Shown here piece after piece: positions 84 through 7,157 of a stretch of DNA of 7,157 bases; position 1 is the stretch's first letter; the number at the start of each line of letters is the position of its first letter. The notes under the pieces were generated by a model. The model had not been told where the DNA came from. It saw only the letters and a program-made list of their open reading frames with translations, and did no database searches. Both the position numbers and the translations under genes were made by a program. Origin of the DNA: Promethearchaeota archaeon (GTDB taxonomy: Archaea > Asgardarchaeota > Odinarchaeia > Odinarchaeales > JBHLKK01); the NCBI GenBank assembly GCA_048939465.1, contig JBHLPL010000101.1, forward strand, positions 1 to 7,157, written 5' to 3'.

Positions 84-299
84 ATGGCTACTAAGTTGAC
101 GAATGCACGCGTTGAAAGAATAATGAGGGAGACAGGGAAGAAGGAAAAAATTCCTCGTGTGTCTGCGGATGCAGTTGTCGCAATGAATGATGCTGCAACC
201 AAGTACATCCGAAGTGTTTGCGTAGCTGCAGCAGCTCTGGCAAAGAAAGACCGACGCAAAACCGTCTTGCAGCGAGATATTGAGCAATCCTCAAAATAG
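84..299 (+). CDS. Archaeal histone (HMf/CBFD_NFYB_HMF-type histone fold), divergent variant, 71 aa
   Basis: Aligns by eye to HMfB: L..A.V.RI...G, RVS.DA, LA....RKTV...DIE, with HMfB R10, R19, R52, T54 and D59 equivalents conserved. SD GGAGGA at 71-76, ATG at 84, TAG at 297-299. Confidence 0.92.
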   Translation: MATKLTNARVERIMRETGKKEKIPRVSADAVVAMNDAATKYIRSVCVAAAALAKKDRRKTVLQRDIEQSSK

Positions 300-322: not shown

Positions 323-349
323 TTTTTTTGAGACTACACTATCTTTTTT
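323..349 (+). terminator. Oligo-T archaeal terminator(s) after the histone gene
   Basis: T7 at 323-329 and T6 at 344-349, 24-50 nt after the stop codon. Confidence 0.6.
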
Positions 350-552
350 CTGATTCTGGTGAGGTTAGTATCCTGGCATCAATTGGAAAGATATTTTTTG
401 CGATTTATGCAAGAGGTCTGTGCCCAAGGTCATTTTGGAATACGGTCCTTATGATACTCCCAATCGCGACAGGAGAAAAATGCGGAATCCTTAAATGTTA
501 TTTTGTGCAATAGTTTATTAGGAGTCCAAAGAATGTCGCGGGAGACTGCTAA

Positions 553-1110
553 ATGCTGCTAAACAATGCGTTATTCAAGGTAATTGTCACCGGAGAGGGC
601 GGTGTTGGAAAAACCTGCCTTGTTCAGCGGTACACTGTTGGAACCTTCTATCACACCAGAACGACCATTGGGGTAGGATTTGCGACAGCTAAAATCGATC
701 TCGATGGAAGAGACATAAGGCTCCAAGTGTGGGACTTTGGTGGTGAAGAGCGTTTTAGAAGACTCCTTCCATCTTTCTGCAGAGGGGCGAGTGGTGCGTT
801 AGTTTTATTCGACTTGACCAGATTTCCCACTTTTCTTCATCTCGATGAATGGATAAATCTCATACGAGATAATACGGACAACGTACCTCTGGTCTTGGTG
901 GGATCAAAAGCTGATCTTGAGAATATGAGAGCTATCGCCAGAGAGCATGTTGCCAAACTGATGAGAAAATACAATATTGAACACTATTACGAGGTTTCTT
1001 CGAAGGATGGAATAAACATAGAGGTAGTTTTTATTCAAATGGCTAAACTAATAGTTAGCTCATTTGAAGCCGTCAATTCGAATCATCAACACGGCATAAT
1101 AAGCATATAA
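553..1110 (+). CDS. Rab-like (Ras superfamily) small GTPase, Asgard type, 185 aa
   Basis: G1 GEGGVGKT, G2 TTIGV, G3 WDFGGEE, G4 SKAD, G5 SSKDG. Rab-family-like motifs IGVGF, RLQVW, RFR, FCRGA, VLFDLT. SD GGGAG at 540-544. In-frame TAA immediately before the ATG. No C-terminal Cys. Confidence 0.95.
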   Translation: MLLNNALFKVIVTGEGGVGKTCLVQRYTVGTFYHTRTTIGVGFATAKIDLDGRDIRLQVWDFGGEERFRRLLPSFCRGASGALVLFDLTRFPTFLHLDEWINLIRDNTDNVPLVLVGSKADLENMRAIAREHVAKLMRKYNIEHYYEVSSKDGINIEVVFIQMAKLIVSSFEAVNSNHQHGIISI

Positions 1111-1124
1111 TAAGGAGGCACAGA

Positions 1125-2111
1125 TTGTTGAGTATAACTGACCAAGACTTCCTAAAGACAAAGCAGCCGGTCACGTGTGATATTTGCGGAGAAAAGTTTA
1201 GCATAAAAATCGAAAAGGACTATCTTAACGATGTTAAGCGCTTTCCTTTCTCCTACACGTTTGTACATGGTGCACCACCTCACGCAGTTGTAGTGTATCT
1301 TGACAAGGATTTAAACGTCCGTGGAACTGAGACGTCTGATCTAACAAGCATAAAGAGCGGTGAATTAGATTCTCCTGCAGTAAATGTTACCCCAGAGACT
1401 CGTCCTATTCTTTCAAGACGTGATATTGGAAAGCTAGAAATGGACGGAGAAACAGTCTTTATACTCCGAGAGGTTGACGGCAAACTCACAGTTGAGGAAA
1501 TCGCTAAGAAGGTCAAAATGGACGTAGACAAAGCTTGTCAGAAGGTTCAGTATTTGGTTGACTCGGGTGTTCTGATGCCGCTACTACCCACTGATCTCTG
1601 CAATGTGGACTACCATCGAATTTACGAACTCGTACCCCCTTATGACACAAACAATGTAACAATGACTGCTGGTGCCCAAAGAAGTTCTGAAACATGCACA
1701 ATTCTCAGCAATCTTGATAAGAACTACACTGTTCTGGAAATTGCTCAAGGTCTCAAAAAGGTTGGCTTTCATAAGTCTCCTCAAGATGTCCTAGAGACAT
1801 TAGAATATTTCAGAGCCAGGGATGTGGTTCGAGTAAAAGGCTTGACGAAAACAGATATACCGGAGGACTGGAAGGATCCAGTGTTCAATCAAGTACCAAG
1901 ATTCGCAGACGGGATAGATGAAGAAAGCATACTTAAGAAGGTGGGAATTCGAGACAAGACACACTATTTCATTATCAGGAACATCGGGAAAAGGAGTATA
2001 TTGGAGATTACTTTGGGCTTGATAGGGCTCGGCATAGAAACAAATCCTAGGAAAGTGCTGGAAACAGTAAGGAAGTATCAGAAACAGGGCTTAGTGTATG
2101 CCACTTTTTAG
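1125..2111 (+). CDS. Uncharacterised 328-aa protein: N-terminal putative C2H2 zinc-binding domain plus three winged-helix-like repeats
   Basis: Long ORF with a TTG start 6 nt after a strong AAGGAGG SD (1112-1118) and 14 nt after the GTPase stop. CDIC...HGAPPH...VYLDKDLNVR at aa 18-66. Three repeats of the pattern IL..[IL/V].....[TS][VI].EI...........[VA]...[VL].......G/D.V. Confidence 0.85.
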   Translation: MLSITDQDFLKTKQPVTCDICGEKFSIKIEKDYLNDVKRFPFSYTFVHGAPPHAVVVYLDKDLNVRGTETSDLTSIKSGELDSPAVNVTPETRPILSRRDIGKLEMDGETVFILREVDGKLTVEEIAKKVKMDVDKACQKVQYLVDSGVLMPLLPTDLCNVDYHRIYELVPPYDTNNVTMTAGAQRSSETCTILSNLDKNYTVLEIAQGLKKVGFHKSPQDVLETLEYFRARDVVRVKGLTKTDIPEDWKDPVFNQVPRFADGIDEESILKKVGIRDKTHYFIIRNIGKRSILEITLGLIGLGIETNPRKVLETVRKYQKQGLVYATF

Positions 2112-2130
2112 GCGTACACGGCCTCTCAAC

Positions 2131-2143
2131 TTTTTCCATTTTT
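2131..2143 (+). terminator. Possible oligo-T terminator after the GTPase/328-aa bicistron
   Basis: TTTTT-CCA-TTTTT 20-32 nt after the TAG at 2109-2111. Confidence 0.45.
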
Positions 2144-2222
2144 CTCAATAATACTTAATAATGCACGATACCATAATCTGATTTGCAAAGTTTAGCTGTG
2201 ACACGTCAGGGAGGAAGAAATT

Positions 2223-2495
2223 GTGAGCAGACCAGAGAATGTGAGATGTACGTGTAAATTGTGCGAAACCATCATTAATGTTCCAGTTCCAGAAGACTTT
2301 GATGCCAGTGAAGGGGGGGTTGCTCCGATTATGTACGTTCATGGGAATCCCCCACACACGATAATTGTGTACGTGGATGTGAATCTAGCGGTTAGAAGTA
2401 GCTTCGTTGTTAAGACCACCGATCCCAAAAAAGCGTTGACTGAGCTCAGAAAGAAATCACTCAAAAGAATGGTAAAACGTGTTAAATCACTTTAG
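2223..2495 (+). CDS. Uncharacterised 90-aa protein: stand-alone paralogue of the putative C2H2 zinc-binding domain plus a basic amphipathic C-terminal helix
   Basis: GTG start 8 nt after SD AGGGAGG (2208-2214). CKLC...HGNPPH...VYVDVNLAVR clearly matches the N-terminus of the 328-aa ORF, which argues that both ORFs are real genes. Confidence 0.85.
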   Translation: MSRPENVRCTCKLCETIINVPVPEDFDASEGGVAPIMYVHGNPPHTIIVYVDVNLAVRSSFVVKTTDPKKALTELRKKSLKRMVKRVKSL

Positions 2496-2551: not shown

Positions 2552-3517
2552 CTATTTCTCGCCACATCGCCTCAGTAGTAGGTCCCAGTTTTGGTCAACA
2601 TGCGTTTGAATCTGATTGATAATATCATTGCGTCTCTCTGGTCTGAACAGATGTCTAAAGCGACCTTGAAGATTTAAGAACTCTTCTACCGGCTTCTTTC
2701 TCTCTGGTTTTCTAACTATTATCTTGCTTGGCGTAGATAGTCTGTAAACGGATTTTCCATTCTCAAAAACTGCCTCCCAAAGCGGAAAGAAACAGGTTTC
2801 AACTGCTACTCTTGCAATCTTCACTGATATGGCCGAATCGTGACGCCATCCTCTCTGGCACGAAGTGAAGAAGTGTAAGAACGCCGGACCTTCTGCATCA
2901 TATGCCGTCTGGGCTTTCTGCATCAAATCTCTCCAATAAGCAGGGGATGCTGTCGCAACGTAAGGTATCTCGTGTTCAACTGCAATTCTTGCAATGGGCT
3001 TTTTCCATTCAACTTTCCCTGGAAGGACCTTGCCGGCGGGGCTCGTCGTCGTCCAAGCGTAGCGAGACGTACCGCCACTTCTCTGGATGCCGGTATTCAT
3101 GTATGCTTCGTTATCGAGCAACACATACACAAAATCGTGTCCTCTTTCTAGGGCTCCAGACAGGGCTTGAATGCCGATGTCAATCGTGCCTCCATCTCCA
3201 GCCAGCGCGACAACATTGATATGTTTTTTCAGTTTCCCACGCCTTCTAAAGCTTTTAAGAGCAGCTTCCACGCCACTTGCTGTCGAAGCTGCATTCTCAA
3301 ACGCACAATGAATCCACGGTATTTTCCAAGAAGTATAAGGATAGATGCTGGTTGAGACCTCAAGACAGCCTGTTGCGCTGACTGCTATAATGGGATCCTT
3401 GCTGGCTTTTATAAGGAGTCTTGTTGATGTTCCCTCCCCACATCCCGGGCATAGTCTATGACCTCCAGAAAGCAATTCCTCAGCGGATTCTGCTATTTCC
3501 TTTGGCTTCAGTGACAT
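2552..3517 (-). CDS. porB: Pyruvate (2-oxoacid):ferredoxin oxidoreductase beta subunit (TPP-binding)
   Basis: HRLCPGCG, TGCLEV, TPP motif GDGG..DIG...LSGA..RG....Y..LDNEAYMNTGIQRS, C..GW. SD GGGGGTGA at 3527-3534. Starts 1 nt after the porA stop. Confidence 0.93.
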   Translation of the reverse strand: MSLKPKEIAESAEELLSGGHRLCPGCGEGTSTRLLIKASKDPIIAVSATGCLEVSTSIYPYTSWKIPWIHCAFENAASTASGVEAALKSFRRRGKLKKHINVVALAGDGGTIDIGIQALSGALERGHDFVYVLLDNEAYMNTGIQRSGGTSRYAWTTTSPAGKVLPGKVEWKKPIARIAVEHEIPYVATASPAYWRDLMQKAQTAYDAEGPAFLHFFTSCQRGWRHDSAISVKIARVAVETCFFPLWEAVFENGKSVYRLSTPSKIIVRKPERKKPVEEFLNLQGRFRHLFRPERRNDIINQIQTHVDQNWDLLLRRCGEK

Positions 3518-3518
3518 T

Positions 3519-4736
3519 CTACTCTCTCACCCCCAGATATTGAACTGTCTCTTTGACCTCCCCGGTCTTAGCAGTTCTCAGTCCTTCTTTGAAGGATTTT
3601 CTAATGAGTTCTTGAGGCACATCACGGCCACCTAGGCCATATATGTAATTCTTTATGATTGGCTTTTCTTCCTCTTCATAGAACATCGATCTCAGTTCGT
3701 TGAATACTGGACCTCCATATCCTCCTGGTACTGAGCTTCTATCTAGAACCACTACCACCTTGACGTTCTTCAATGCCTCCAGCAATCTCTCACGCGGGAA
3801 AGGTCTGAATACCCTGAGCTTCAGCGATCCAACTTTTGCCCCCTCGGCCTTCATGGTTTTTGCCACATATCTAGTTGTACCAGATGTTGAGCCTAAACTC
3901 AAGACCGCCACTTCTGCATCTTCCAATCCGTATTGATCAATGACACCGTAGGTTCTTCCAGACAGTTCCCCGTATTCTTTATCAATCTCATCAATAACCT
4001 TTTCGACATCATTCATTGCCAGGATTTGCTGTAGTTTGATTTCAAAGTAGTAGTCTGTCAGCGCCAGATCTCCGAAGCTTAATGGATTCTCAGGGTTTAA
4101 GGCGTAGGGGACTTTTTTTCCTCCCACATCCACCTCTGAAATCTCTTTATCTCCTATGAAATCCTTGACTATTTCATCTGGAAGTGTAGCCACATTCTCC
4201 AACGTATGGCTTAAAACAAAGCCATCCAACGTATCCATAACTGGCAACTGAACCTTGGGGTGTTCGGCTATTCGCCATGCTTGGATTGTAGTATCATATG
4301 CTTCTTGGCTATTTTCGCAGTAGATCTGTACCCACCCACTGTCCCTAGCTCCCATCGTATCTGAATGATCACAGTGAATGTTTATTGGTGCCGATAGTGA
4401 ACGATTCACAACAGTCATGACTATTGGCAGACGCAGCCCTGCTGCTATATAGAGGATTTCCCACATCAATGCCAACCCCTGGCTGGCAGTCGCAGTATAC
4501 GCTCTTCCTCCAACGGCAGCTGCGCCCACGCATGCAGACAAAGCCGAGTGTTCCGATTCTACAGGAACGAACTCGGTATTCACTTCTCCATCTGCGACAT
4601 ATTCAGAAAATCTTTCAACGATTATTGTTTGGGGTGTTATCGGATAAGCAGCCACAACATCTGGATCGCATTGCTTTGCCGCGAATGCTGCAGCCTCATC
4701 CCCATTTAAAGCTAAGATCTTTTGTTTCACGACCAT
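3519..4736 (-). CDS. porA: Pyruvate (2-oxoacid):ferredoxin oxidoreductase alpha subunit
   Basis: AAYPITPQT, ESEHSA, TATASQGL, HCDHSD.M, DGFVLSH, YGLGGRD. ATG at 4736 preferred because SD AAGGAGTGA lies 8 nt upstream; the alternative GTG at 4745 overlaps the porD stop. Confidence 0.93.
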   Translation of the reverse strand: MVVKQKILALNGDEAAAFAAKQCDPDVVAAYPITPQTIIVERFSEYVADGEVNTEFVPVESEHSALSACVGAAAVGGRAYTATASQGLALMWEILYIAAGLRLPIVMTVVNRSLSAPINIHCDHSDTMGARDSGWVQIYCENSQEAYDTTIQAWRIAEHPKVQLPVMDTLDGFVLSHTLENVATLPDEIVKDFIGDKEISEVDVGGKKVPYALNPENPLSFGDLALTDYYFEIKLQQILAMNDVEKVIDEIDKEYGELSGRTYGVIDQYGLEDAEVAVLSLGSTSGTTRYVAKTMKAEGAKVGSLKLRVFRPFPRERLLEALKNVKVVVVLDRSSVPGGYGGPVFNELRSMFYEEEEKPIIKNYIYGLGGRDVPQELIRKSFKEGLRTAKTGEVKETVQYLGVRE

Positions 4737-4741
4737 CCGTA

Positions 4742-5011
4742 TCACTCCTTAATCATGGTTATCGCATCAACGGGACATTCTTCAGCACAGACACCGCACC
4801 CCTTGCAGAAATTATAATCAAAAGTGATCTTTTTCCCGTCCCATTTCACCGCCATGTCCGGACAATAAAGCCAACATAGCATGCACGTTGTACATTTCTC
4901 ATGATCTATCACCGGTTTGAATGTACGCCAATCACCTGTGTGATACTCCTCGCTGGACTTCCACGCAACTCCACCCATTGGTATTTCCTTCGATCCCTTC
5001 TTCTCAATCAC
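4742..5011 (-). CDS. porD: Pyruvate (2-oxoacid):ferredoxin oxidoreductase delta subunit (2x[4Fe-4S] ferredoxin-like)
   Basis: TGDWRTFKPVID, CTTCMLCWLYCP and CKGCGVCAEECP. GTG at 5011 (9 nt after GGAGG at 5021-5025, overlapping the end of porG) is preferred over the ATG at 5029; the start is uncertain. Confidence 0.9.
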   Translation of the reverse strand: MIEKKGSKEIPMGGVAWKSSEEYHTGDWRTFKPVIDHEKCTTCMLCWLYCPDMAVKWDGKKITFDYNFCKGCGVCAEECPVDAITMIKE

Positions 5012-5576
5012 TCTCTTCTGCCTCCTCATACGCTCTTGTGATTAGGTTGACATTCATTTCTCCAACCTTTCCCCTAAATCGCTCTTTGGTTGCGTTCAAT
5101 ACGCTGTCCAGTTTCGCATATCCTGTTGCTCTGATTAGAGCTCCAATCATCGCTGTACTGGTAATCTCCCGTCCTAGAATTTCGACAGAGAGATCAGTAG
5201 CCGGTATCGCCCAGATTTTCTGTGATTTGAGCAGTTTAATCCTCTTCTTCAGGTCTGTTGGAGAGTCTCTTGAATTCACTATTATACTGCCTTCTTTGAC
5301 CAGCCCATCAGCGACGTCAACCGCGTCGAGCAGTGTAGGGTCCAAAACCACAACGCTGTCTGGTTCGTAAATACCACAATGAAGATCTATTGGATTATTC
5401 GAAATACGGACATATGCCTCCACAGGAGCACCACTTCGCTCAGGCCCGAATGCCGGAAAGGACTGTGTGTATCTGCCTTCGTTGATCACTGCCTTTGCCA
5501 GTATCTGTGTCGCGGTCCAAGCACCTTGACCACCTCTACCGTGAAATCTTATCTCTATGATCTTGTCCGCAGACAC
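5004..5576 (-). CDS. porG: Pyruvate (2-oxoacid):ferredoxin oxidoreductase gamma subunit
   Basis: EIRFHGRGGQGA, SFPAFGPERSGAPV, IYEPD.VVVLDPTL. GTG start with SD GGAGG at 5584-5588. Confidence 0.93.
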   Translation of the reverse strand: MSADKIIEIRFHGRGGQGAWTATQILAKAVINEGRYTQSFPAFGPERSGAPVEAYVRISNNPIDLHCGIYEPDSVVVLDPTLLDAVDVADGLVKEGSIIVNSRDSPTDLKKRIKLLKSQKIWAIPATDLSVEILGREITSTAMIGALIRATGYAKLDSVLNATKERFRGKVGEMNVNLITRAYEEAEESD

Positions 5577-5627
5577 TAAATCGCCTCCATACTATTAGAT
5601 TAACCATACACCGTGAAATTGGAAGAT

Positions 5628-5641
5628 AGATATAACACTTG
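5628..5641 (-). promoter_or_regulatory. Possible TATA box of the por operon
   Basis: Minus strand CAAGTGTTATATCT, with TTATAT at 5635-5630, about 55 nt upstream of the porG start and downstream of the nad terminator. Confidence 0.35.
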
Positions 5642-5656
5642 TGCTGAGAGAGGAGC

Positions 5657-5684
5657 AAAAAAACACCAAATCACGGCTCCGTGA
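5657..5684 (-). terminator. Hairpin plus T7 terminator after nadC
   Basis: Minus strand TCACG-GAGC-CGTGA (5684-5671) followed by TTTGGTGTTTTTTT (T7 at 5663-5657), beginning 13 nt after the nadC stop. Confidence 0.55.
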
Positions 5685-5697
5685 GGGACTTCATATC

Positions 5698-6564
5698 TCA
5701 TTCGTCGGAAGAGACGGTCTTCATTAACTCCAATTTCATGCTGAGAGCCCTAGCTGAATGAGTTAAACTTCCCATTGAAAGCACATCAACGCCAGTTGCT
5801 GCATATTCATCCACGTTTTCAAATGTAATTCCTCCCGATGCCTCAACGATAACTCTATCTCTTAATCCTTGGTCCTCGAGTTCATGTACGGCTTGTTTAA
5901 TCTGGTCCGGAGTCATATTATCCAGCATAACTATGTCTGCGCCTGCTTTGGCGGCCTTTAGGCAGTCTCCGATATTCTGAACCTCGATTTCCACCTTTTT
6001 GGAGAAGCTGACCTTGTTTCTAGCAATTCTCACTGCAGTCTCAACGTCTCCGACAAGAACAAGATGATTGTCTTTGATCAAGACGCAATCATCTAGTCTG
6101 AATCTATGTGTATCTCCTCCCCCAATCTCAGCGGCCCGTTTGTCGAAATATCTGAGAAGAGGGGCTGTCTTCCTAGTAACTGCAATCCGAATATCGGGGT
6201 TCGCTTTTCTTGCCTTTTCTATGCTTCTGCCAACAGCGGTGGCTATCCCACTCATTCGCATTAAGAAATTGAGGGCTGTTCTTTCACATGTAAGTATGGC
6301 CTTTGCTGACCCTTCGATAATCATAACAGTAGTTCCAGCTCGTTCAACCTTGTTTCCGTCTTTCAATTTGGTTGCGACTTTTAGCCCCATTTCTTCAAAA
6401 ATGATCTTCGCCTCTCTGATTCCAGCTAAAACACCAACTTCTTCAGCAACTATCTTAGCCTTACTCCTCTCATCTCCAACTAGAATCTCCGTGGTAATGT
6501 CACCGAACCCTGCATCTTCATTTAGCGCACTAATTACTCTTTCTTTAAGATCAAGAGCTTTCAA
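5698..6564 (-). CDS. nadC: Quinolinate phosphoribosyltransferase (nicotinate-nucleotide pyrophosphorylase, carboxylating)
   Basis: EDAGFGDIT, ERTALNFLMRMSGIAT, TRKT, HR..LDD.VLIKDNH, IEVE-like VEIEV, IVMLDNM, EASGGIT, D..S.GSLTHS. TTG start 3 nt after the nadA stop, SD GGAG at 6574-6577. Confidence 0.95.
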   Translation of the reverse strand: MKALDLKERVISALNEDAGFGDITTEILVGDERSKAKIVAEEVGVLAGIREAKIIFEEMGLKVATKLKDGNKVERAGTTVMIIEGSAKAILTCERTALNFLMRMSGIATAVGRSIEKARKANPDIRIAVTRKTAPLLRYFDKRAAEIGGGDTHRFRLDDCVLIKDNHLVLVGDVETAVRIARNKVSFSKKVEIEVQNIGDCLKAAKAGADIVMLDNMTPDQIKQAVHELEDQGLRDRVIVEASGGITFENVDEYAATGVDVLSMGSLTHSARALSMKLELMKTVSSDE

Positions 6565-6567
6565 AAG

Positions 6568-7157
6568 CTACAACTCCATCATACGTTCCATGGCTTTTCT
6601 TGCCTTGACTGCGATTCTCTCGGGAACCTTCACTATCGGGGATTTATTCTTTAGCGAAAGGAAGACCTTCTCTAGCGTGATACTCTTCATTTGTTTACAT
6701 TTTGCCTCCTCGTTCGCACAAACAAAGGTCTTATGAGGGATCTCCCGTCTCATTCTCTCGATCAATCCAGTCTCAGTAGCAACTATGAATTCTTTACAAT
6801 GTGATTCTTGAGCATGTCTATACATTTGCCCGGTACTGCCAACGAAATCTGCTGCCTTTTGGATCTCCGGATCACATTCGGGGTGAACCATAAGCTCTGC
6901 CTTTGGATACTGCTCTTTCTTGATAATTGTCTCCGCGCCAAACATTGTATGAACGTAACAGTGCCCATGTGGGGGAATAGGAATTATCTCCTTATCCGGG
7001 ATTTTGCTCTGGACATACCATGCTAGGTTCTTATCCGGTCCGAAGAGGATCTTGTCCGCATTGAGCTTTCCCACAACCTGTGCTGCGTTGGCTGATGTGC
7101 ACATGACATCTGCTTCAGCTTTCGCCTCCGCTAGTGTGTTCACATAAAGAACAACTA
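6568..7157 (-). CDS. nadA: Quinolinate synthase A, C-terminal part (5' end lies outside the window)
   Basis: Frame is open to the window edge (VVLYVNTLAEAKA; the GTG at 7143 is an internal Val). Motifs ADVMCTSANA, GPDKNL, GHCYVH, HPEC, GSTG, ATE.G, C..MK.ITL; two of the three [4Fe-4S] ligand Cys are visible. Confidence 0.93.
   Translation of the reverse strand, partial: VVLYVNTLAEAKAEADVMCTSANAAQVVGKLNADKILFGPDKNLAWYVQSKIPDKEIIPIPPHGHCYVHTMFGAETIIKKEQYPKAELMVHPECDPEIQKAADFVGSTGQMYRHAQESHCKEFIVATETGLIERMRREIPHKTFVCANEEAKCKQMKSITLEKVFLSLKNKSPIVKVPERIAVKARKAMERMMEL

Follow-up and report, generated by a model that had tools for sequence, protein, structure and literature searches.

Asgard archaea encode dozens of eukaryote-like small GTPases, and to our knowledge almost nothing is known about the proteins that regulate or read them. 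One locus of a Promethearchaeota archaeon (assembly GCA_048939465.1, contig JBHLPL010000101.1) raises the question of whether such partners can be recognized from the genes that accompany a GTPase. Here, a gene for a Rab-like GTPase is followed by genes for a 328-residue and a 90-residue protein that share a small, putatively zinc-binding domain (hereafter the Zn-domain). The stretch of DNA that was analyzed, which we call the window, is the whole 7,157-bp contig (C34) of a 1.96-Mb genome with a completeness of 91%, and the database proteins nearest to those of the window carry the labels Hodarchaeota or Promethearchaeota. Do the three genes constitute a signaling module, as a first-pass annotation of the sequence had proposed? 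We give an even chance to the hypothesis that they form a small-GTPase module in which the Zn-domain proteins act as partner or effector of the GTPase. What the comparative data show is that the GTPase of the window belongs to a distinct Asgard Ras-like subgroup whose genes habitually precede Zn-domain genes. The three reading frames are located where the annotation had placed them, and the parts on which the argument depends are the following.

553-1110, forward strand: gene for the Rab-like GTPase, 185 amino acids (aa); from the list of open reading frames (ORFs), with a Pfam Ras match (E=4e-41)
1113-1118, forward strand: Shine-Dalgarno-like AGGAGG, 6 nucleotides (nt) ahead of the TTG codon at which the 328-aa gene starts; from the sequence
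1125-2111, forward strand: 328-aa gene, TTG start at 1125; from the ORF list
1137-1340, forward strand: Zn-type beta-domain of the 328-aa protein, aa 5-72; from invariant alignment columns and the strands of an AlphaFold2 (AF2) model
1404-1631, forward strand: winged helix 1, aa 94-169; from VIA-align and Foldseek comparison with NPRL2
1686-1904, forward strand: winged helix 2, aa 188-260; from AF2 and repeat similarity to winged helix 3
1920-2105, forward strand: winged helix 3, aa 266-327; from AF2, with an isoelectric point (pI) of 9.8
2223-2495, forward strand: 90-aa gene, GTG start; from the ORF list
2238-2411, forward strand: Zn-type beta-domain of the 90-aa protein, aa 6-63
2424-2489, forward strand: basic C-terminal helix of the 90-aa protein, aa 68-89; from AF2

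The annotation had taken a Shine-Dalgarno site and a new gene within 14 nt of the GTPase stop as the mark of a bicistron, and this spacing holds: the TAA stop codon (1108-1110) is followed by AGGAGG (1113-1118) and, across a 14-nt gap, by the TTG start at 1125. The junction and its Shine-Dalgarno-like site are conserved in the genus, and the predicted starts of the 328-aa and 90-aa genes match the N-termini of their homologs. The repetition of a CxxC..HGxPPH domain in the two proteins is likewise borne out, both by BLASTP (34% identity over 53 aa, E=3e-9) and by the conserved residues.

The shared domain spans about 60-65 aa. Alignments of 25 to 50 diverse members yield the signature C-x2-C ... 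H-G-x-P-x-H ... D ... R, and among 50 such members a cysteine and both histidines are invariant, while conservation reaches at least 90% for the first cysteine and for G, P, D and R. In the 328-aa protein, the putative ligands are C18, C21, H48 and H53, and D60 and R66 are also conserved. AF2 models the domain as a five-stranded antiparallel sheet. Because CxxC occupies the first hairpin turn of these models and HGxPxH the second, so that the four putative ligands, invariant or nearly so, lie in two adjacent turns, we infer that the domain carries a Cys2His2 metal site.

In keeping with the proposal that the domain is undescribed, it has no match in Pfam or NCBIfam, and a sequence search of the PDB returned only chance-level knuckle matches. 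A structure search of 48,161 PDB representatives gave a best Z of 4.5, which is not proof of a new fold, and the structural neighbors in AlphaFold-DB and ESM-Atlas are all uncharacterized archaeal proteins. The profile of the domain does not resemble the genome's own roadblock proteins (hhalign probability 0.3%). Known zinc-binding families were also considered and rejected. A whole-genome search with DUF2072/OapC (PF09845) gave two chance-level matches elsewhere (E 0.5 and 1.3) and none on Zn-domain genes. The Brz zinc beta-ribbon (PF23454) reached at best 12.6-15.7 bits against a cut-off of 27.9, and covered the CxxC knuckle alone. The classical C2H2 finger, defined by C-x2-4-C-x12-H-x3-5-H in a beta-beta-alpha unit, differs from the C-x2-C-x26-H-x4-H spacing on a five-stranded sheet seen here, and no zf-C2H2 match was obtained.

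How often does this domain keep company with a GTPase? Its profile matches 352 of 400 Asgard genomes (88%) and 77 of 85 genera. A single genome has as many as about 14-22 copies, and the matches total about 1,700. We sampled 89 loci from the top-scoring hits of a profile seeded on GTPase-linked members. Of the 89, 24 have a Ras-like GTPase gene as direct neighbor on the same strand, and by automated count it lies upstream in 23 of these, although the seeding biases the 26% figure for adjacency upwards; in four further loci the GTPase is on the opposite strand. De-replication at 65% identity left 59 clusters, and a GTPase gene is immediately upstream in 13 of them, with gaps that are mostly between -3 and 26 nt. 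Since the Ras family makes up 0.8-2.1% of genes in the surveyed genomes, an adjacency of 13/59 has a probability of at most 2e-8 even with a background of 3%. A second, unbiased count, restricted to three well-assembled genomes but covering all of their hits with a locus, found 6 of 30 Zn-domain genes abutting a GTPase gene, against about 0.8 expected. The tight spacing of a GTPase gene followed by a Zn-domain gene recurs in several Asgard families.

A second, independent pair is encoded in the window's own genome (contig C12:3515-6505, locus L004), where a roadblock-like gene, a GTPase gene, a gene for a 320-aa Zn-domain protein and a methyltransferase gene follow one another. The roadblock-like gene of this locus encodes 142 aa (hhalign 71%, E=4e-5). 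The 320-aa protein has a divergent copy of the domain, and its start overlaps the end of the GTPase gene. Among the partners of adjacent GTPases in general, the Zn-domain is the sole common part, and the C-terminal parts differ.

The GTPases themselves reflect this association. A maximum-likelihood tree unites 25 of 26 unlinked GTPases, drawn from three genomes, in one clade (support 100/99) that excludes all 26 linked ones, and the single unlinked GTPase outside this clade was confirmed to have no Zn-domain neighbor. The GTPase of the window groups with Zn-linked GTPases from other families. The annotation had anticipated that the domain would co-occur with GTPase genes across Asgard genomes. 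The enrichment in 13 of 59 clusters and 6 of 30 genes, together with this linked subgroup, supports that expectation. In the synteny survey of Asgard genomes, GTPase adjacency is far above background, but about 80% of the domain's genes do not adjoin a GTPase gene.

That last figure is one of several observations that weigh against a GTPase-centered view of the domain. The rates in the three genomes are uneven (4/8, 1/11 and 1/11), with only one GTPase-adjacent gene among 11 in each of the two Loki-type genomes. Related genomes are also non-independent observations, and D60 and R66 are equally conserved in GTPase-linked and unlinked members, which makes these residues unspecific for the GTPase link. 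The domain is fused as well to GerE/helix-turn-helix (HTH) regions, to arrays of tetratricopeptide repeats (TPR) and to long unassigned regions. In six loci, a gap of 1-26 nt separates a stand-alone copy of ~100-110 aa from a large DEAD/Ski2-type helicase gene downstream of it, and this helicase adjacency is a second conserved neighborhood of the domain. The six helicase-linked loci are in Loki-type genomes (L021, L035, L044, L052, L056 and L076); a seventh, L045, has a gap of 453 nt. The link between domain and GTPase thus concerns a minority of a large and versatile family.

A counter-example adds to these points. A 47%-identical ortholog of the gene pair (L132, in the lineage of P0012), with a 322-aa protein of Zn-domain plus three winged helices and a partner of about 100 aa, has a ubiquitin-like gene immediately upstream, and no GTPase gene lies within 4 kb. 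The downstream gene of this pair encodes an ortholog of the 90-aa protein that ends in the same basic tail, and the adjoining block of 2-oxoacid:ferredoxin oxidoreductase (POR) and nadC genes is kept as well. An E2 gene and ESCRT-II genes (EAP30 and Vps25-like) lie beyond the ubiquitin-like gene (L132:1-3936). Because none of the 89 sampled loci has a ubiquitin-like neighbor, the ubiquitin/ESCRT adjacency looks lineage-specific. As a separate observation, a ubiquitin domain occurs in 25% of the proteins of one ESM-Atlas cluster with the fold of the domain.

The existence of the L132 pair lowers our confidence that the GTPase is obligatory, and the most conserved unit of the 328-aa subfamily is the tandem of two Zn-domain genes. 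Might the GTPase gene upstream of this pair then be a lineage-specific accident, with the Zn-domain serving as a general interaction module? The substitution of a ubiquitin-like gene for the GTPase gene beside the same POR/nadC block would be expected from such an accident, as would the predominance of unlinked copies and the combination of the domain with many unrelated modules. An accident fails to explain why the GTPase of the window shares its subgroup with GTPases that other families encode beside Zn-domain genes, why the 14-nt junction and its Shine-Dalgarno-like site are conserved in the genus, why the same genome has a second GTPase/Zn-domain pair, and why the enrichment is so far over background. 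We consequently regard this explanation as quite unlikely.

By sequence, the GTPase is Rab-like. Its Pfam Ras match scores 140 bits, there is no Gtr1_RagA match, and each of its best 60 PDB relatives is a Rab (E about 3e-36). Alignment locates motifs G1-G5, comprising a GEGGVGKT P-loop, the switch-I threonine, DFGG, SKAD (with serine for the asparagine of NKxD) and SSK. The protein ends in ...HGIISI and has no prenylation-type C-terminal cysteine; none occurs in its last 100 residues, the last cysteine being residue 76. The G3 motif reads DFGGEE, which places glutamate at the position of Ras Gln61 (codons 61-62, nt 733-738). Because the catalytic glutamine position is occupied by glutamate, this GTPase probably hydrolyzes GTP slowly or depends on a partner to do so. 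The substitution is shared with its closest linked relatives, in families f33 and f4, and glutamine is retained in most other Zn-linked GTPases. The subclade of this GTPase has SKAD as well as the glutamate. Elsewhere in the window's own genome (G000), other small-GTPase genes lie beside genes for winged-helix proteins (contigs C33:7524-8675 and C138:9143-10504), one neighbor being E2F/DP-like and one TrmB-like by eye, which suggests a wider GTPase/winged-helix theme.

Glutamate at this position invites a specific variant of the GTPase-partner hypothesis, in which the Zn-domain would itself be the element of a GTPase-activating protein (GAP) and R66 would be an arginine finger for a GTPase that has lost its catalytic glutamine. 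The presence of glutamate in the window's GTPase subclade fits this idea, as do the hairpin HGxPxH...D...R, in which G, P, D and R vary little or not at all, and the use of a GP motif and an arginine finger by longin GAPs (PMC12290439). The same four residues, however, are kept in unlinked members, including those linked to helicase genes, and a structural role for them is therefore simpler. Most linked GTPases also keep the glutamine, and we consider the proposal very doubtful.

What, then, might the Zn-domain proteins do for a GTPase? The AF2 model of the 328-aa protein (mean predicted local distance difference test (pLDDT) 91, predicted template-modeling score 0.71) consists of the beta-domain, a disordered linker and three winged-helix units, just as the annotation had read three winged HTH units from the sequence. 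When this model was compared with the PDB by Foldseek, the top 13 matches were NPRL2/3 or Npr2/3 chains of GATOR1/SEACIT (E down to 9e-6). VIA-align places model residues 81-153 on NPRL2 162-236 with Z=11.8 and a root-mean-square deviation of 2.8 A over 73 aligned residues, compared with a Z of about 7 for DNA-binding winged helices against winged helix 1. NPRL2 and NPRL3 (Npr2 and Npr3 in yeast) are the GAP core of GATOR1/SEACIT for RagA/Gtr1.

The 90-aa protein is modeled (pLDDT 92) as the same kind of five-stranded sheet with a single helix at residues 68-89. This helix, described in the annotation as basic and amphipathic, is indeed basic (net charge +8) but only weakly amphipathic (hydrophobic moment 0.24-0.42).

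Relatives of the full-length 328-aa protein are few: when 1.84 billion cluster representatives were searched exhaustively with its profile, 29 were recovered. Among these, proteins of about 150 aa comprise the Zn-domain and winged helix 1. Others, of about 285-420 aa, have homologous winged-helix repeats after a different N-terminal domain of ~110 aa, and one such paralog is encoded in the window's own genome. By structure comparison in ESM-Atlas, the N-terminal domain of one paralog of this group (P0014) matches Roadblock/LAMTOR2 clusters with template-modeling scores by hit of 0.55-0.63, which is moderate support. Because the ESM-Atlas model of the paralog resembles Roadblock/LAMTOR2, the Zn-domain in the window appears to sit where its paralogs have a roadblock-like domain, within one family of winged-helix scaffolds. 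Sequence comparison of the paralog N-terminal domain against the PDB also lists two roadblock entries first, but with E of about 1. An ESM-Atlas feature search gave scores below 0.9, and the hhalign probability against the genome's roadblock proteins is 1.8%, so that sequence profiles do not support the assignment.

These features suggest how the module would work. The Zn-domain would be a docking element that couples the 328-aa protein to the GTPase, a role that would parallel those of the roadblock and longin platforms in MglB, Ragulator and NPRL2/NPRL3. The three winged helices would form an NPRL2/3-like scaffold that recruits further partners. The 90-aa paralog would most likely pair with the 328-aa protein through the shared domain to produce a two-subunit platform, and such heteromeric pairing is favored because the tandem persists where the GTPase gene is absent. 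A complex prediction for the GTPase with GTP and Mg and residues 1-170 of the 328-aa protein, run with alignments for both, returned a score of 0.00, which counts neither for nor against binding.

A different reading is that the Zn-domain/winged-helix proteins are one-component-type DNA-binding regulators, that the Zn-domain is a dimerization, sensor or nucleic-acid-binding ribbon, and that GTPase adjacency reflects co-regulation or autoregulation. Some members are fused to a bona fide DNA-binding HTH (GerE, E=3e-7), TrmB/MarR names occur among AlphaFold-DB matches, and the winged-helix units give weak HTH_47/TrmB/MarR matches. The high pI of winged helix 3 (9.8), the net +8 charge of the helix in the 90-aa protein and the stand-alone copies upstream of helicase genes point the same way. 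In contrast, the first two winged helices are acidic, with pI values of 5.0 and 5.8, and have no basic residues in their third helices, leaving winged helix 3 as the only basic unit. This mostly acidic character makes it less likely that the winged helices bind DNA directly. Structurally, they are best matched by the protein-scaffold winged helices of NPRL2/3 (Z of 11.8 against about 7 for DNA-binding regulators), and DNA-binding regulators would leave unexplained both the tracking of the domain by a dedicated GTPase subgroup and the fusions to V4R or TPR without an HTH. Thus, we hold a role as DNA-binding regulators to be unlikely, albeit worth keeping in view, and retain a GTPase partner as the preferred function.

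Fusions and neighbors of the domain in other lineages point to varied outputs. Of 92 Zn-domain genes, 21 are followed immediately by a V4R gene, and nine of these are triads of GTPase, Zn-domain and V4R genes. In some lineages V4R and the Zn-domain are fused (Pfam V4R, E down to 2e-19). The sample contained no protein in which the Zn-domain is joined to a GTPase domain. No V4R match was found in any protein of the window, where the gene after the 328-aa gene is the 90-aa Zn-domain paralog. Several further arrangements were noted. Loci L022, L027, L028, L032 and their relatives (family f14) have a conserved trio without a GTPase gene, composed of genes for a LarA-like protein (433 aa), a Zn-domain/winged HTH protein (about 160 aa) and a V4R protein (169 aa). 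At L080 and L087, the Zn-domain proteins have 739-843 aa and form divergent pairs with proteins of 504-545 aa whose Ras domain follows an N-terminal extension, and other long forms, of 604-620 aa, carry TPR arrays. A protein of 377-408 aa with the domain at its C-terminus (G000 C137:5943-7169, reverse strand, and L093:2032-3162) shows recurrent weak matches in both genomes, just under Pfam cut-offs, to ATC_hydrolase (V4R-like region) and to ARPC4 (ARP2/3 subunit 4).

RBD and CRIB domains are common to many eukaryotic effectors, and they provide a model for the sharing of the Zn-domain among such different proteins. We tentatively propose that the Zn-domain could be an unrecognized Asgard-wide GTPase-binding domain, shared by effectors or regulators with outputs as varied as winged-helix, V4R/TRAPPC3-like, TPR and HTH regions, and interchangeable with roadblock in NPRL2/3-like scaffolds. 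If so, the GTPase-Zn-V4R operons would be the first genome-encoded pairings of Asgard GTPases with partners. The domain supplies concrete, cloneable GTPase-partner pairs, and it bears on the pre-eukaryotic assembly of GTPase regulators of the GATOR1, Ragulator and TRAPP types. Even if it does not bind GTPases, it defines a large uncharacterized archaeal family that deserves a name.

The annotation had also suggested that the module might link the GTPase to chromatin or transcription through an adjacent histone gene. This idea depends on the flanking features of the locus, which are as follows.

84-299, forward strand: histone-fold gene (CBFD_NFYB_HMF, E=6e-13)
323-329, forward strand: T7 tract 3' of the histone gene, conserved in the genus
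481-552, forward strand: upstream region of the GTPase gene, a putative promoter and 5' untranslated region, from sequence only
491-496 and 514-519, forward strand: TATA-like candidates TTAAAT and TTTATT upstream of the GTPase gene
540-544, forward strand: Shine-Dalgarno-like GGGAG before the GTPase gene
2131-2135 and 2139-2143, forward strand: two T5 tracts, then TATA-like TTAATAA at 2155-2161, conserved in three members of the genus
2209-2214, forward strand: GGGAGG before the 90-aa gene
2552-7155, reverse strand: 2-oxoacid:ferredoxin oxidoreductase operon (beta, alpha, delta, gamma), then nadC and a truncated nadA

A distance of 253 nt separates the GTPase gene from the histone gene upstream of it on the same strand, and this arrangement is kept in the genus, as a functional link would predict. 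The block at 481-552 is nearly invariant in three genomes of the genus, and the remaining spacer varies. Conservation of the T7 tract, the T5 tracts and the TATA-like box makes it probable that the histone gene is a separate transcription unit and that the 90-aa gene is transcribed from a promoter of its own at TTAATAA (2155-2161); the T5 tracts at 2131-2143 would be the terminator of the GTPase/328-aa bicistron. The conserved T7 tract thus argues against a chromatin link. So does a phmmer search with this histone, which finds no other histone-fold ORF in the genome (completeness 91%), and outside the genus all 87 loci lack a histone gene beside the operon. We give a chromatin role for the module almost no credence. 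With regard to the other flank, the oxidoreductase/nadC block also adjoins the Zn-domain gene pair in an 85% relative (L007) and in the 47% relative (L132). Public runs that contain the stretch are of DNA from mangrove and sediment metagenomes, and no RNA run is listed among them.

How do these genes compare with known GTPase systems? The closest architectural parallel is offered by NPRL2/3, defined by Levine et al. (2013, PMC3747258) as a longin domain combined with at least two winged HTH repeats. The 328-aa protein likewise has an N-terminal globular domain followed by repeated winged helices, and both are tied to a small GTPase, genetically or physically. In contrast, its N-terminal domain is a Cys2His2 sheet of ~65 aa with one short helix rather than a longin, with no longin Pfam match, and its sequence similarity to NPRL2/3 is undetectable. 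The adjacent GTPase is Rab-like rather than Rag-like, and the window has no DEPDC5-like gene. NPRL2-like longin proteins, and an operon of LAMTOR1-like, Rab-like GTPase and DENN genes, have been described in Asgard genomes (Liu et al., 10.1101/2020.10.19.343400).

An archaeal precedent is the ArvA-ArvB-ArvC operon of a vesiculating GTPase with a zinc-ribbon partner (Mills et al., PMC10927574), in which ArvC (DUF2072) is of unknown mechanism (PMC10927574). In that system, as here, an archaeal small-GTPase gene is accompanied by partner genes; ArvA is co-transcribed with the genes of two small proteins, one of them the zinc-ribbon protein ArvC. Unlike ArvABC, the present genes include no DUF2073 partner and PF09845 misses the Zn-domain genes. 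Furthermore, the Zn-domain occurs in 88% of searched Asgard genomes, and ArvA homologs are reported in 8 of 183 (PMC10927574).

Structures of Asgard Rab, roadblock and TRAPPC3 proteins have been solved (Tran et al., PMC10933270). The same authors report that small-GTPase genes of the cultured Lokiarchaeon MK-D1 generally lie outside operons with roadblock, longin and TRAPPC3 genes (Tran et al., PMC10933270), and that without operons it is hard to match Asgard GTPases to their partners (Tran et al. 2024, PMC10933270). In light of that report, the GTPase-Zn-V4R triad appears to be previously undescribed; full-text literature searches likewise returned no description of the domain or the triad, which is not proof of absence. 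The triads relate to V4R/TRAPPC3(Bet3)-like Asgard proteins, in that V4R genes follow or fuse to Zn-domain genes in many lineages, although the window is without V4R.

Finally, MglA-MglB and the actinobacterial conservon (roadblock, DUF742 and GTPase) resemble the present locus in being operons of a Ras-like GTPase with small partners. Unlike MglB, no protein of the window matches Robl_LC7, and Pfam searches of the window's proteins detected neither a longin nor a roadblock family, as the annotation had stated. DUF742 (PF05331) gives weak sub-threshold matches in relatives of the 328-aa protein (E 0.007-0.05) and none in the protein itself. Further points of resemblance to roadblock systems come from the wider family: the second GTPase locus of the genome, on C12, begins with a roadblock-like gene, and paralogs of the 328-aa protein are predicted to bear a roadblock-like fold in place of the Zn-domain.

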